From a virus (lineage: Duplodnaviria > Heunggongvirae > Uroviricota > Caudoviricetes), in IMG/VR virus record IMGVR_UViG_2913167280_000010, positions 1-49,852 of that record: DNA of 49,852 bases; one strand, written 5' to 3'. Position numbers and translations under genes: made by a program. The stretch's first letter is position 1. Each line of letters begins with the position of its first letter. The notes below the pieces were generated by a model. That model ran no database searches, had not been told where the DNA came from, and worked only from the letters and a program-made list of their open reading frames with translations. Below, piece by piece: positions 20,129 to 32,930 of the stretch.

Positions 20129-20570
20129 TGTTATCTATCCACGCTATAAAGCTGCCCTTAAACAGGCCGCCGTCTATGAATGACGGACGCCGCTCACCGG
20201 TATATTTGTCCTTAAGCCTGGAGTTAACGCCCAGTAGCGCGGCCTGAGTTGGCACAGGGTTTCCGTTAATCGTCATCCCGGCCATTTCTTCAGTTTCAAG
20301 AAAAATATGGAAAATCTTCTCAGTCCCTTCCAGAAAATGCTCGCCTGGTAGCGGAGCCTTATGCTTAAGGTGATTGACCAACTGGTACGCCAGTTCAGTA
20401 CCTGCCTCCTGGATAATCTCGTCCTTATGCATTTCCCAGAAGTGCGTAAAAATTTCGTAGCGCTCCTCGAGGTCACAGGCCACGTCGAACGTGGTTTTTC
20501 CCGGTTCGTCGCCGTAGTCATACGGCTGGTCAACAACACCAAAACAAAGTTTCATGGCGTGTACCCCCAT
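20115..20570 (-). CDS. Phage structural protein (151 aa)
   Basis: Coupled ORF in the head-tail connector region. Confidence 0.4.
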   Translation of the reverse strand: MGVHAMKLCFGVVDQPYDYGDEPGKTTFDVACDLEERYEIFTHFWEMHKDEIIQEAGTELAYQLVNHLKHKAPLPGEHFLEGTEKIFHIFLETEEMAGMTINGNPVPTQAALLGVNSRLKDKYTGERRPSFIDGGLFKGSFIAWIDNNAES

Positions 20571-29331: not shown

Positions 29332-30241
29332 CCGGCACGCTGCCAGAGACTCGACTTTCGAATACGGAATCATTTGTCACCCCCATTGATATGCAGGGTG
29401 TCTTCTTCCTGTATTTTTCGTGAAGGATTTTTACTGCAGCGTTGTTCCAGGTGACCTGATGGTGAATGCGTTTATGGCTGGCGCCCATCAGTGAGATTTT
29501 TACGCACGACGGCGCATGCATGACGGAGTAAAAACTTTTAACATAGGTTCCGGAATCCAGATACAGCTCGGTCATTCCGCCGCTGTTTTTCTGCGTCTGT
29601 TTCTGCCCTAACTGGACAGCACCGATCGTCATAAACAATTCACCACAGCGACCGAGATTCGTGTACGTATTCACATCCTCGTTAATGCGCCCCATGAATG
29701 AGAACGGTCGATCAACGGAACAGATAAAACTGTTCATTGCCTTGCGTTTCACCCACGAAGCATGGCCGCCATTGTCACCAAGAAAATCCCCGCCCTGCGA
29801 CATAGCGATGGAAAGCGCAGGTATTGATTCGTAATACGCCAGCATCTCAGAAAGGATCGCATCCAGTTTCCTTATCGGGAAATAGGCCTGGTCATAGTTG
29901 CGATCCACCCGAAACTGGAACTCGTGATAATCATCATCGAGCTGAATGAAGTATTTACACCCGACCAGTTTTACCAGGTCGAAACAGGCATTACGGGCGT
30001 AAAAAATTGAGCGGCGATCACCGAAATTATCGGCTTCGTCAAAACGACTGGCTATATCGGCTTTGGAAAACACCAGCACCTGTTCACCAAATTCAGCTAT
30101 GTACTGATGCCGTGTCTTATCTTCATCATCAACAACGATAAAAACTTTCCCGGTATAGCCAGCACGACGCAACGTCCGGTAAGTCAGAACTTTGTCCGGG
30201 CGCCCGTGAGTCAGAATAAAGGCGCAAAAATCATCACGCAT
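29309..30241 (-). CDS. GT-A-fold-like (DxD) putative glycosyl/nucleotidyl transferase, 310 aa
   Basis: Start ATG overlaps the ParB-like stop (ATGCGTGA) with GGAGG RBS; motifs CAFILTHGRP, KVFIVVDDED, FIQLDDDYHEF. Confidence 0.5.
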   Translation of the reverse strand: MRDDFCAFILTHGRPDKVLTYRTLRRAGYTGKVFIVVDDEDKTRHQYIAEFGEQVLVFSKADIASRFDEADNFGDRRSIFYARNACFDLVKLVGCKYFIQLDDDYHEFQFRVDRNYDQAYFPIRKLDAILSEMLAYYESIPALSIAMSQGGDFLGDNGGHASWVKRKAMNSFICSVDRPFSFMGRINEDVNTYTNLGRCGELFMTIGAVQLGQKQTQKNSGGMTELYLDSGTYVKSFYSVMHAPSCVKISLMGASHKRIHHQVTWNNAAVKILHEKYRKKTPCISMGVTNDSVFESRVSGSVPDDCTTNR

Positions 30242-31025
30242 ATTCCTCCTCCTCCCCGCCATGCATGATCTCCACCATGCGCTGCGTCATCCGGACAAAT
30301 CCATTTTCAATAGCCTGCTGATAATCAATGATCACCAGCGCCGACTCCTCAAAAAGGCTCTGAATTTCAGCGGGGGCGTGAGCGTAATAGTCCGCAATTC
30401 TGCTAAAATTAAACACCGTGTGACGTTCTGCCGCGCACAGGAGGAATTTTTCGATATCAGGCTCAAGGGACGCCGAACGTATCCGGCTGACCAGCTCCTG
30501 AGTTTTCGTATCGTCGTACAGTTCACTGATATCCGGTTTACCGCCCGACGGCTTATAAACAGGCGTATCAATTTTCGTCGTATACGGCTCCTCCTCATTT
30601 CCTGTACCGGGCAAAACATCCGTCAACAACTCATCAATTTCTGTCGGGCTGAAGCCTGTCAGGGAGACATCAAAATCAGCATTGATTAGGTCCGACAGCT
30701 CCATCCGTAACAGATCTTCATCCCAGCCAGCATTCATCGGCAGGCGATTATCTGCCAGGCGGTACGCCTTTTTCTGCTCATCCGTCAGGCCAGACAGAAC
30801 AATGACCGGAACAGAATCCATTTTGAGCATTTCAGCCGCCATAACACGACCGTGACCCGCAATAATTTCGCCCTTTTCGTCAATCAGCACCGGATTAGTC
30901 CAGCCGAATTGCTTTATGCTTTCTACCAGTTGTGCCACCTGTTCAGGGCTGTGTGTCCTGGCGTTGTGTGCATACGGAGACAGTTCTTGTAAAGGGCGAT
31001 AGACGATCTTCAATTTCTCGCTCAT
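30234..31025 (-). CDS. ParB-like nuclease domain protein (ParB/Srx fold), 263 aa
   Basis: N-terminal ParB-N-like region (VYRPLQELSPYAHNARTH...AGHGRVMAA); acidic C-terminus; upstream of terminase. Confidence 0.75.
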   Translation of the reverse strand: MSEKLKIVYRPLQELSPYAHNARTHSPEQVAQLVESIKQFGWTNPVLIDEKGEIIAGHGRVMAAEMLKMDSVPVIVLSGLTDEQKKAYRLADNRLPMNAGWDEDLLRMELSDLINADFDVSLTGFSPTEIDELLTDVLPGTGNEEEPYTTKIDTPVYKPSGGKPDISELYDDTKTQELVSRIRSASLEPDIEKFLLCAAERHTVFNFSRIADYYAHAPAEIQSLFEESALVIIDYQQAIENGFVRMTQRMVEIMHGGEEEEYA

Positions 31026-31428
31026 ACAGACTCGCTTTATGAATAAAAAAGCCCGCTATCGGCCAGTGCGCTGGGTGCGCGGCGGGTGCTGATAACGAGC
31101 TTTGACATTATCGCAGCCCCTCACACTGAAGGGCTGCTGTAATGCCTGTTACTCACGAATCAAACGAGCATGCTGACCACTCATTTCAATGCGTAAGTAT
31201 TGTGGCTTGCCGTCAATCAACGCGGTGATTAACTTGTCACCTGTAGGTTTCCACATAATTTTCTCCTGTTTTAATGCCCCTTGCCGCCGGGCAGTTGATC
31301 AAATTTCATCTTGATTCGGCAAGATTTAGAATGAATAAGATAAAATTGGCACACGCAGCAGAATTCCATGCTTTCAGGACGCTGGCGCACCCTTCATTTT
31401 CAGCAAAATATTCTGCTCTTACAGGCGA

Positions 31429-31611
31429 TCAGTTCTGCATACACTGCCGAACACCGTCGACAATTTCACAGACCTGAGAAGCTGTATCGAAAAGCTGGCG
31501 CGCCTTATCCAGGCTGACGCACCCCACCAGGAAAAAAGGCACCAGTATCGCTACCAGTGCCCATTTCACCGCCGTTCGCGGCATTCTGTGTGTCCAGTGT
31601 TTTCGCGTCAT
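31429..31611 (-). CDS. Small lipoprotein (60 aa; lipobox LVGC, 3 Cys in mature part)
   Basis: Signal plus lipobox; not proline-rich, so not a typical o-spanin. Confidence 0.5.
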   Translation of the reverse strand: MTRKHWTHRMPRTAVKWALVAILVPFFLVGCVSLDKARQLFDTASQVCEIVDGVRQCMQN

Positions 31612-31612
31612 G

Positions 31613-31765
31613 TCACCACCAACGCACAGCCCAAATCAGAACAGCGACCGCCACAAGGCGAATTGCAAAGGCCGCAGCCCTTGTCAAATCAAGGCTCGCG
31701 GGAGTTTCCACTTCAATACCTTTCATAATGGACAACCTCAAAAAGAATCTTTTATACTTTCCCAT
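31613..31765 (-). CDS. Small tail-anchored membrane protein (about 50 aa)
   Basis: ATG with GGAGA RBS; C-terminal hydrophobic helix (AAAFAIRLVAVAVLIWAVRWW); stop 1 nt before the lipoprotein start; below the ORF-track size cut-off. Confidence 0.3.
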   Translation of the reverse strand: MGKYKRFFLRLSIMKGIEVETPASLDLTRAAAFAIRLVAVAVLIWAVRWW

Positions 31766-31851: not shown

Positions 31852-31890
31852 AAAAACCCCGGACTGTTCCAGCAGCCGGGGTTTTGTTTT
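31852..31890. terminator. Hairpin terminator downstream of the endolysin gene
   Basis: AAAAA-CCCCGGACTGTTCCAGCAGCCGGGG-TTTTGTTTT; near-identical to 11996..12036. Confidence 0.45.
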
Positions 31891-31892
31891 GC

Positions 31893-32276
31893 TTATCGTT
31901 TCAACTGAAAGTGAGGCCCGTCTTTCAGTGTTTTCCAGTCCCCGCCCCATTCGATGGCAGTTCCCAGCTCTGCGGCAGCCTGCTTAAATGCCTGCGCGAT
32001 TTTCTCGTACAGAGGCCAGTCCCATGACACCTGGCTGCCAATGTAGGCAACAACATCCACCGCATCACCGGTCAGGTGGCGGCTGTTCATGGTCTGGCTT
32101 TTCCCTTCCGCGACCAGCTGTTTCTGGCGATACTTACTGCGCAGGCCTTCCGTAATACCGAAATCAACCTCCGTCAGCTCCAGCGCACGGCGAACTACAG
32201 CAACCAGCTGTGGTTTGACTCCATCCAGATTTTTTTCACTGCGACGGCTGAATCTGAATTTACCCGACATATTCAC
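31893..32276 (-). CDS. Endolysin, peptidase M15-like (L-alanyl-D-glutamate peptidase type)
   Basis: 127 aa; SRHLTGDAVD zinc-binding-type motif and C-terminal DGPHFQ; follows two membrane-protein genes. Confidence 0.7.
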   Translation of the reverse strand: MNMSGKFRFSRRSEKNLDGVKPQLVAVVRRALELTEVDFGITEGLRSKYRQKQLVAEGKSQTMNSRHLTGDAVDVVAYIGSQVSWDWPLYEKIAQAFKQAAAELGTAIEWGGDWKTLKDGPHFQLKR

Positions 32277-32548
32277 CTCAACAATGGAAAGATTTTTGTG
32301 ACGTTCCCGCGTGCGCGTATCACCAGCACGCAGAACAGCAGATTAAAAAACACTTCAGGCCAGCCCGTTGCTAACGGGCGACCACACAGATAGCTGAGGG
32401 GCGCAAAGGCATACAGCAGCATCAGCAGCCAGGCCAGCCATGACATCAGCGGTTTATGTCTGGAATCACGGCGACGATAAAAAAAGAGCGTCAGCACGAT
32501 AACCGTGCATAACGCCACATTCAGCAATCCGGGAAGGCTACTTAACAT
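32273..32548 (-). CDS. Lysis-cassette membrane protein (holin/antiholin-like, about 91 aa)
   Basis: Track ORF trimmed to the ATG at 32548 with GGAGG RBS; multiple TM helices; overlaps the endolysin start. Confidence 0.45.
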   Translation of the reverse strand: MLSSLPGLLNVALCTVIVLTLFFYRRRDSRHKPLMSWLAWLLMLLYAFAPLSYLCGRPLATGWPEVFFNLLFCVLVIRARGNVTKIFPLLR

Positions 32549-32930
32549 TGCCGCCTCCTCCACCCCGCAGGCGGGAGAACAGGCCGGACACCAGCGATGC
32601 AATATCCTGCTGGTGGATGAACGAGAGAATCTTCACCGACACCACTGACACCAGTACTGCACACAATGCGTCGACAGGTGCACCGTCAAACTCTGTATGC
32701 TTTACCAGCCAGGATGCCAGAACCTCTGCGCCCAGCACGCCAATAATGAACGACACCAGAAAATGCGCTGCCACACGCCAGGCTGAAAGCGCCTGCGGCA
32801 TCGTTGCCACAAATAACGCCCCGGCAAACGCACCAAACACAATCCCGAAATCCGTTCCGGTAAACAGCCCGAATACCGTCGCCCCACCGAGCGCCGCAGC
32901 CGTGCCGGAACCGGACAAGGGTTCAGACAT
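32538..32930 (-). CDS. Holin-like membrane protein (about 130 aa)
   Basis: ATG at 32930 with AGGAGA RBS; Gly/Ala-rich TM helices; first gene of the lysis cassette. Confidence 0.5.
   Translation of the reverse strand: MSEPLSGSGTAAALGGATVFGLFTGTDFGIVFGAFAGALFVATMPQALSAWRVAAHFLVSFIIGVLGAEVLASWLVKHTEFDGAPVDALCAVLVSVVSVKILSFIHQQDIASLVSGLFSRLRGGGGGNVK

Follow-up and report, generated by a model that had tools for sequence, protein, structure and literature searches.

A Short Phage Lipoprotein in Place of Spanin Genes, without an Inner Membrane Subunit, in Lysis Cassettes of Escherichia and Salmonella Prophages

We find that the lysis cassette of a lambdoid prophage ends in a gene for a 60-amino-acid (aa) lipoprotein precursor that replaces, by position, the Rz/Rz1-type spanin genes. 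The prophage was analyzed as a stretch of 49,852 nucleotides (nt) covering positions 1–49,852 of the IMG/VR virus record IMGVR_UViG_2913167280_000010 (Caudoviricetes), which we call the window. With intR, xisR, recET and kilR it is a lambdoid prophage of the Rac type, located at ttcA, and its lysis module matches those of phiP27 (a Stx2e phage) and phiSTEC1575-Stx2k. On the minus strand two holin genes and an M15 endolysin gene are followed by a hairpin, a gene for a small protein with a single transmembrane (TM) segment, and the lipoprotein gene, which together form the 3' end of the late lysis operon. We conclude that the lipoprotein is a spanin-slot lipoprotein, predicted to reside in the outer membrane, that has no inner membrane subunit and that was earlier misfiled as one half of a two-component spanin.

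Two Small Genes at the End of the Lysis Cassette

An earlier reading of the sequence alone, hereafter the original prediction, had placed two adjacent small genes with stop and start 1 nt apart behind the endolysin and its hairpin, and its coordinates are correct to the nucleotide, with both genes on the minus strand. The TM gene (31613–31765) encodes 50 aa from an ATG at 31765 that is preceded, 8 nt upstream, by GGAGA, so that the ribosome-binding site and the C-terminal TM segment ascribed to it are both borne out. The lipoprotein gene (31429–31611) opens with an ATG at 31611, 1 nt past the TGA of the TM gene (31613–31615), and has its stop at 31429; it is the last gene of the cassette. Its product reads MTRKHWTHRMPRTAVKWALVAILVPFFLVGC before and VSLDKARQLFDTASQVCEIVDGVRQCMQN after the predicted cleavage site. 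The lipobox LVGC had been recognized correctly, as had a mature part of about 30 aa with three cysteines: the predicted acylated residue is Cys31 (31519–31521), the mature part has 30 aa, and the other two cysteines, C48 and C57, are invariant.

Both small open reading frames (ORFs) are real genes under purifying selection. For 67 distinct alleles of the lipoprotein gene and 15 of the TM gene, all drawn from related loci, the Nei-Gojobori method gave ratios of nonsynonymous to synonymous substitution (dN/dS) of 0.22 for the lipoprotein and 0.08 for the TM gene, and it is the contrast between these low values in the annotated frames and the 0.9–5.9 found in the two shifted frames that identifies the ORFs as genuine. 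The lipoprotein falls into phrog_7528 (E 5.6e-38) and the TM protein into phrog_4493 (E 1.8e-23) and phrog_1115, all of them families without an assigned function. Neither protein has a match in Pfam, NCBIfam or PADLOC (for the lipoprotein, none in Pfam at E ≤ 1 and none in NCBIfam at E ≤ 10), and a profile search of the PDB returned only noise (E ≥ 0.09).

The Lipoprotein Gene Lies in the Spanin Slot

For every member of the lipoprotein family that was placed, the gene comes right after the endolysin, or after the endolysin plus an inserted module that carries the TM gene. The endolysin of the window is an L-alanyl-D-glutamate peptidase of the M15 type (31893–32270, minus strand, 125 aa; Peptidase_M15_4, E 1.6e-12; phrog_465 endolysin, E 3.4e-75). 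Homologs of this endolysin were scanned for in one genome per GTDB species, and 24 of the 27 loci were examined. Directly past the homologous M15 endolysin, Yersinia, Buttiauxella, Serratia, Providencia, Xenorhabdus and Brevundimonas encode a canonical spanin pair, namely an inner membrane subunit (i-spanin) of 126–197 aa with an N-terminal TM segment and an overlapped or embedded outer membrane subunit (o-spanin) of 75–116 aa; Erwinia has one extra membrane-protein ORF between endolysin and spanin pair. The same slot past the M15 endolysin of Citrobacter braakii holds the 60-aa lipoprotein described here. The positional replacement follows from these spanin pairs in other genera and from the alternation of Rz and the lipoprotein behind the TM module, which is described below.

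The original prediction had found no Rz/Rz1 pair in the lysis genes and had judged the two small proteins unlike classical spanins, and both statements hold. When all six frames of the window were scanned permissively for lipoboxes, only this lipoprotein and two others at 1014–3114 (cdtA and cdtC) came up, and eight i-/o-spanin pairs from relatives, searched against the window with tblastn, gave no significant match. Across 80 loci (−2.5/+2.2 kb) there was neither a second lipobox ORF nor a recurrent ORF with an N-terminal TM segment, and the same was true of four divergent loci. Moreover, the membrane segment of the one small protein is C-terminal, the mature lipoprotein is proline-free, and no i-spanin candidate lies nearby. 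A lipoprotein pseudogene with three in-frame stops was noted in locus L175 (3420–3602), approximately 750 nt downstream of an intact cassette of lysozyme, TM, and Rz/Rz1 genes; it keeps the GTGGTGATATG junction and could reflect decay of a redundant gene, but as a single case it carries little weight.

The lipoprotein is retained in surroundings that otherwise vary widely. Genes for divergent members lie directly past the endolysin, with a gap of 0–7 nt or an overlap, and the endolysin is of the M15, GH108 or M15-like type. Four of these cassettes (P0171, P0173, P0177 and P0184) have Phage_holin_3_1 (lambda-S-type) or holin_8/holin_3_7 holins, and the phages that carry divergent members are lambdoid (Q antiterminator), Mu-like (GemA, Mor, Portal_Mu) or baseplate-bearing. 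In locus L092 the holins are 33–38% identical to those of the window and the lipoprotein is 93% identical. Given that the sequence of the lipoprotein is kept while holins and endolysins are swapped, its most likely target, as judged from these comparisons, would be a host structure rather than a phage partner.

No promoter-like site was found upstream of the lipoprotein gene in its endolysin-coupled arrangement, and the gene spacing indicates that it is often translationally coupled to the endolysin. These features bear on the possibility that the lipoprotein is a moron-type accessory, either a Cor/Llp-like protein for receptor masking and superinfection exclusion or a Bor-like host-fitness factor. 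Receptor masking is known from small disulfide-bearing phage lipoproteins such as T5 Llp and the Cor proteins of phi80 and N15, lambda has its bor gene immediately behind Rz, and the junction between endolysin and lipoprotein is an insertion hot spot that receives KilA-N, gp52 and L31-type inserts. Nevertheless, the lipoprotein is coupled to the endolysin at many loci, with no promoter-like site of its own, it is kept even where other morons insert beside it, and it travels with lysis modules across Nu1/GpA, HNH/Terminase_4, DUF1441, Mu-like and baseplate-bearing phages. A receptor blocker would be expected to accompany tail genes, and the apparent linkage to lysis modules, which sets the lipoprotein apart from Cor/Llp-type exclusion lipoproteins with their link to tail or receptor-binding modules and their expression early or in lysogens, thus disfavors such a role. 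Together with the lack of a match in the databases of defense systems and protein families named above, these observations make a moron-type function unlikely in our view.

An Orphan in the Spanin Catalog

A member of this family already stands in a curated spanin catalog, where a comparison of the kind suggested in the original prediction finds it as an o-spanin singleton. Kongari et al. (2018; PMC6139136) list phiP27 as having a "separated" two-component spanin, which at 62 periplasmic residues they rank as the shortest. The o-spanin of that entry is the phiP27 copy of the lipoprotein, taken as a 51-aa start variant with 30 periplasmic residues and 83% helix, and the i-spanin is a 64-aa ORF with a TTG start (record 20348–20542). 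Although the phiP27 lipoprotein is 93% identical to that of the window, its supposed partner does not behave as a gene. The ORF runs antisense within a 90-aa ORF that has a PHROG family of its own (E 5e-20), itself has no PHROG match, and occurs in only 3 of the 185 sequences examined, with phiP27 itself accounting for two of the three. We are almost certain that this antisense ORF is spurious, which leaves the phiP27 lipoprotein an orphan. GenBank records call the lipoprotein hypothetical, omit it, or show a CDS in the wrong frame, as with L32 (P27p32) of phiP27; within our locus L002, taken from NC_003356, this CDS and the antisense "i-spanin" lie at 3013–3244 and 3332–3526, respectively.

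The catalog entry is one of several arguments that the lipoprotein is nonetheless the o-spanin of a true two-component spanin whose inner membrane subunit has escaped recognition, be it the TM protein, a holin-like protein, another phage gene product or a host protein. The lipoprotein has the expected lipobox, periplasmic cysteines and position in the lysis cassette, with no Asp after the acylated cysteine (position +2), and in the sampled E. coli loci it always accompanies the holin_8/holin_3_7 pair. However, the i-spanin on which the entry depends is the antisense TTG ORF discussed above, some minimal cassettes consist of holin_3_1, M15 and the lipoprotein and have no other membrane protein, and 30 periplasmic residues are too short to cross the periplasm. 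The TM protein has its membrane segment at the C-terminus with only RWW beyond it, is missing in 35 of 77 loci, and accompanies complete Rz/Rz1 pairs. We therefore consider a hidden partner improbable.

Two specific candidates for such a partner can be set aside. The TM protein was rejected as an i-spanin, as it does not have the type II layout of an N-terminal membrane segment ahead of a periplasmic, usually coiled-coil domain, and as its occurrence is facultative. The holins were also rejected, as they offer short loops only and the lipoprotein stays conserved beside the strongly diverged holins of L092 (93%) or beside another holin family. The first holin-like gene of the window, of the Phage_holin_8 type (32538–32930, minus strand; PF16931, E 2.2e-22; phrog_198 holin), encodes 130 aa from the ATG at 32930, and the second, a Phage_holin_3_7 protein with three TM segments (32273–32548, minus strand; PF05449, E 3.5e-22; phrog_217 holin), encodes 91 aa. 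The mechanical ORFs extend to 33002 and 32602, respectively, and relatives are annotated with 130 and 91 aa. Consequently, of the suggestion in the original prediction that the pair might be a noncanonical spanin, the part concerning the lipoprotein is supported, in that it lies in the spanin slot and its phiP27 copy has been cataloged as an o-spanin, whereas the idea of a two-component pair is not.

The TM Gene Belongs to a Separately Mobile Module

The lipoprotein and the TM protein are two independent components and not an obligate pair. We queried IMG/VR with each of the two proteins, took 80 loci for either query, and located the cassette proteins in these. The lipoprotein ORF is intact in all 80 of its loci; presence of the TM gene could be scored in 77 of these, and it is missing from 35. 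The arrangement of the window, M15 followed by TM and lipoprotein, occurs in 15 loci, and a GH108 muramidase replaces M15 with the TM gene present in a further 27. The TM-less loci comprise 33 with holin_8, holin_3_7, M15 and the lipoprotein, in 29 of which the lipoprotein ATG lies 14 nt past the M15 endolysin stop (a layout shared by E. coli HBUT-L), and two with GH108, one of them L092, where the lipoprotein ATG overlaps the endolysin stop. The loci of divergent lipoprotein-family members also have no TM gene. Conversely, in lysozyme-type lambdoid cassettes (L004, L174–L176) the hairpin and TM gene precede a complete Rz/Rz1 pair, with no intact lipoprotein gene.

Alignment of hairpin and TM gene from five contexts suggests how these arrangements arise. 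The aligned segment starts with the hairpin and ends with TGGTGGTGAyATG, the ATG of which opens either Rz or the lipoprotein. The 1-nt spacing between stop and start therefore appears to be the way in which the module docks onto the next gene, and since the same junction docks it onto Rz, the spacing is no sign of a dedicated partnership. Based on this comparison, hairpin and small TM gene (or genes) form what looks to be a separately mobile module that inserts between the endolysin and whichever gene occupies the spanin slot. In a variant of the slot, two small membrane proteins are encoded between the hairpin and the lipoprotein gene: first a relative of the TM protein, 60 aa long and with another C-terminal membrane segment, and then a second TM protein of 44 aa. 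Two or three tandem small hydrophobic proteins were also seen behind the same hairpin, ahead of spanin or lipoprotein genes, in loci L044 (3590–3996) and L004 (2505–3130, minus strand).

The hairpin of the window (31853–31885), AAAACCCCGG...CCGGGGTTTT, starts 7 nt past the end of the endolysin gene and folds with −22.3 kcal/mol (z −4.35), a value that none of 200 shuffled sequences equals. It is rich in G+C, has an A-run on one side and a T-run on the other, and so resembles a bidirectional intrinsic terminator. The hairpin is kept behind three unrelated endolysin types, and in the lysozyme-type copies the inner stem differs in sequence and yet pairs.

The independent distribution of the two genes bears on two further suggestions of the original prediction. 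A superinfection-exclusion pair is not supported, as the TM gene is absent from so many lipoprotein loci and also occurs with Rz/Rz1. Nor is a toxin/immunity pair, whether in that form or as a module akin to type I toxin-antitoxin systems, in which a membrane peptide toxin would be countered by a protective lipoprotein or by an antisense RNA. The TM peptide does resemble small hydrophobic toxins in size. In addition, a sigma-70-like site on the opposite strand (31729–31758, plus strand; TGGACA-18-TATACT, 10 of 12 positions) overlaps the 5' part of the TM gene in antisense orientation, faces the bidirectional hairpin, and would yield an RNA of approximately 100–130 nt; this single hit is below the 2.2 expected by chance per region and thus is not significant. 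Against a toxin stand also the independent occurrence and inheritance of the two genes, their place within a late operon with Shine-Dalgarno sites and stop/start coupling, and the lack of a PADLOC hit, and we regard this explanation as very unlikely. A promoter of their own for the two genes past the hairpin was likewise rejected, there being none on the coding strand and the sole hit, on the opposite strand, being within chance.

The TM protein, MGKYKRFFLRLSIMKGIEVETPASLDLTRAAAFAIRLVAVAVLIWAVRWW, has a basic N-terminus and a sole hydrophobic segment at approximately residues 30–47 of 50, followed only by RWW. With charges of +5/−3 in the N-terminal half ahead of the membrane segment, the positive-inside rule predicts a tail-anchored protein. 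The invariant pattern is F-A-I-R...W..RWW. The most constrained part is not just the membrane segment: the acidic middle segment MKGIEVETPASLDLTR (codons 14–29) has a dN/dS of 0.01 with a proportion of synonymous differences (pS) of 0.44. Most annotations carry a 37-aa form that starts at an internal ATG (31726) with GAGG 9 nt upstream, and in most relatives the 50-aa form starts with GTG. As the frame upstream of the internal ATG is open, and the Shine-Dalgarno site and the GTG or ATG of the 50-aa form are kept even in the most divergent copies, both forms, which differ by a strongly basic extension, may be in use.

Our best guess for the TM protein, made with low confidence and by analogy, is an accessory inner membrane factor that modulates lysis, comparable to Lcc6 of LambdaSo. 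Like Lcc6 and the Mu releasin gp25, it is very small, single-pass, associated with lysis, and outside the triad of holin, endolysin and spanin. There is no homology to either, however, and Lcc6 has an N-terminal TM segment and a gene away from the cassette, whereas the TM protein described here is tail-anchored by prediction, facultative, and travels with a terminator-like hairpin.

The existence of such small single-TM factors at the holin level (Lcc6, releasin) also raises a broader alternative in which the lipoprotein, the TM protein or both regulate lysis, in an antiholin-like, releasin/Lcc6-like or endolysin-restraining manner, and the cassette has no outer membrane disruptor. Phages without spanins do exist, and the TM protein may have two starts, the longer form adding an N-terminal extension of +4, which recalls S107/S105. 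For the TM protein, this alternative forms part of the best explanation. The lipoprotein, on the other hand, sits beside unrelated endolysins (M15, GH108) and unrelated holins, which makes a partner-specific regulator unlikely, and a lipopeptide sorted to the outer membrane would be badly placed to control a holin in the inner membrane. As an account of the whole cassette, we therefore think that regulation alone has a low probability.

Sequence and Predicted Structure of the Lipoprotein

A word-indexed search recovered only relatives from Escherichia and Salmonella with at least 70% identity, all annotated as hypothetical. When 1.84 billion cluster representatives were searched exhaustively with a profile, the family grew to no more than 24 clusters at 50% identity, all from Enterobacteriaceae. 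The family pattern is C-x2-[LF]-[DE]-K-A-R-x-[LW]-[FL]-x3-A-x2-[VM]-C-x8/9-C, in which the three cysteines are invariant, and the divergent members share the long basic n-region, the lipobox and a mature part of approximately 30 residues. One unexpected carrier is the sequence deposited as "Actinobacillus phage vB_Apl-pPE4" (PP818812.1; L003), which has about 92% DNA identity to an E. coli prophage lysis region and contains an unannotated lipoprotein gene; this match is surprising for a phage attributed to Actinobacillus pleuropneumoniae.

Selection is uneven along the protein, with a dN/dS of 0.33 in the n-region, 0.23 in the h-region and lipobox, and 0.15 in the mature part. The n-region (residues 1–16, window 31564–31611; RKHWTHRMPRTAVKW) is unusually long, very basic and conserved, and it may matter for the kinetics of processing or have a function of its own. 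A Tat-type signal was considered and rejected: P-R-R(-x-x-K) occurs in some divergent members, but the twin arginine is not conserved and is replaced by RT or RK elsewhere. Within the region coding for the signal peptide (31537–31562, minus strand), 11 base pairs, G-U among them, form a terminator-like hairpin with a T-run behind it, which is also present in E. coli HBUT-L (L005, 2659–2684); it could be a chance product of repeated CTGGT codons or an attenuating structure.

The mature part is predicted by AF2 to be a single continuous helix, with low confidence (pLDDT 67). Its heptads show an a/d pattern, and the hydrophobic moment over 18 residues is 0.45–0.62. A comparison by eye of the mature peptide with the N-terminus of Lpp gave a few identities, on which we do not rely.

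Comparison with Known Systems

The lipoprotein shares several properties with Rz1-type o-spanins, as it is small, is encoded at the end of the lysis cassette, and has a predicted lipobox, no Asp at +2 (V, A, T, G or S across the family) and cysteines in the presumptive periplasmic part (C-x8-C or C-x9-C). It differs from them in having no conserved i-spanin partner encoded by an adjoining or overlapping gene, and in a mature part of 30 aa that is predicted to be helical and is proline-free, whereas lambda Rz1 has 10 prolines in 40 aa. With 30 mature residues and no partner it also falls short of the length by which a two-component spanin complex bridges the periplasm. Unimolecular spanins of the T1 gp11 type likewise fill the spanin slot with one gene, the product of which begins with a lipoprotein signal; in contrast to these, the lipoprotein ends in ...VRQCMQN, without a C-terminal TM domain or a long beta-rich periplasmic domain.

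In size and predicted lipidation the nearest analogs are the colicin lysis proteins, or bacteriocin release proteins (BRPs; Lysis_col, PF02402), the mature forms of which have approximately 28–33 aa behind a lipobox L-x-G/A-C and the expression of which makes the cell envelope leaky. The signal peptide of BRPs has a functional role, and the long conserved n-region of the lipoprotein is suggestive of a similar one. However, the lipoprotein has no Pfam match, and BRPs lack cysteines in the mature part, are not helical, and act without holin or endolysin through activation of OmpLA.

The other close functional analogy is to disruptin, although the lipoprotein is homologous neither to it nor to BRPs. 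Disruptin is not known to have a signal sequence and passes through the lesion that the holin makes, whereas the lipoprotein is predicted to be targeted by Sec and Lol and lipid-anchored, is near-neutral and has conserved cysteines; there is no sequence similarity between the two. What they would have in common is a short amphipathic helical peptide proposed to break the outer membrane without spanning the periplasm. Disruptin (phiKT gp28), which comes from a spanin-less phage, is described as a cationic antimicrobial peptide (bioRxiv 10.1101/515445).

Proposed Role in Lysis

Taken together, we give about even odds to the hypothesis that the lipoprotein is a lysis factor of the spanin slot that serves the outer membrane step. 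A narrower version, in which it acts alone and by a nonspanin mechanism, as a stand-alone lipid-anchored disruptor of the outer membrane that needs neither an inner membrane partner nor membrane fusion, we put forward only tentatively. In this model the lipoprotein would be made alongside the endolysin through translational coupling, exported and lipidated via Sec, Lgt and LspA, and handed by the Lol pathway to the outer membrane, where it would sit in the inner leaflet; this sorting is predicted because residue +2 is Val and not Asp. There the 30-residue amphipathic helix would build up, probably as an oligomer or with a disulfide staple through its two invariant cysteines. After holin triggering and removal of the peptidoglycan by the endolysin, the lipopeptide would weaken or rupture the outer membrane. 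It would act on this membrane only and would not fuse it with the inner one, because approximately 30 periplasmic residues without an inner membrane partner cannot bridge the periplasm.

Several considerations weigh against this role. The mature peptide is not cationic, with a net charge of −1 here and a family range of −2 to +3; its amphipathicity is only moderate, it contains no known membrane-lytic motif, and the helix prediction has the low confidence given above. The outer membrane would also have to be spared before holin triggering, for which no means is evident. With its 24 clusters confined to Enterobacteriaceae, the family is unusually restricted for an essential lysis function, although spanin families, too, are numerous and narrow. 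As spanin-less phages exist, the cassette could have no outer membrane disruptor and the lipoprotein could serve some other function, and an inner membrane partner could be encoded elsewhere in the genome or be supplied by the host. The lysis role of the TM protein is itself drawn by analogy, with low confidence. Finally, our literature search found no experimental study of either small gene or of any family member. If the lipoprotein proved dispensable, what is left of the finding would be a moron hot spot with two small conserved genes.

Neighboring Features

Downstream of the lysis cassette, a conserved 35-aa ORF (31149–31256, minus strand; phrog_8025, E 1e-22) is followed by the hairpin GCAGCCCCTCACACTGAAGGGCTGC (approximately 31114–31138). 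The ORF recurs downstream of the lipoprotein gene in relatives such as HBUT-L, and its hairpin in HBUT-L and phiP27. Between the lysis and packaging genes, both the window and its relatives encode a ParB/Srx-like protein (30234–31025) and a GREB1-related/TAGT-like protein. In the region of the window at approximately 25.7–31.0 kb, as delimited by homology to L177, this closest relative has an anti-CBASS protein of the Acb1 family among the genes adjoining the terminase.

A complete cdtA-cdtB-cdtC operon lies at one end of the prophage (1014–3114, minus strand), with CDtoxinA domains at E 4e-52 and 1e-35 and an Exo_endo_phos domain for cdtB. The two closest relatives of the structural module that were examined match only from approximately 3.4 kb, and the cdt genes thus look like cargo added at the prophage end.

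Implications for Phage Lysis

Only the spanins and one disruptin provide a settled answer to how phages get through the outer membrane. In 91 of 677 genomes of phages with Gram-negative hosts (about 13%) no spanin was identified (PMC6139136), and bioRxiv 10.1101/515445 puts the fraction at about 15%, so that some 13–15% of these phages have no recognized solution. The present analysis corrects the phiP27 entry, which has been cited as the shortest known two-component spanin and rests on a probable nongene. It also offers a directly testable candidate, because inducible carriers of the lipoprotein family exist (phiP27, phiSTEC1575-Stx2k).

If the lipoprotein does act alone as a disruptor of the outer membrane, it would add a mechanistic class of its own to the two-component spanins, the unimolecular spanins and disruptin, and Rz/Rz1-type genes would have been displaced by it in widespread prophage cassettes of E. 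coli and Salmonella, including those of Stx2e, Stx2k and cytolethal distending toxin (CDT) phages. Should a lipopeptide of 30 residues suffice, it would embody a minimal principle for weakening the outer membrane, and it could be used as a tool for permeabilizing that membrane. The same role would bear on how toxin-converting prophages, those encoding Stx2e, Stx2k and CDT among them, release both their toxins and their virions.

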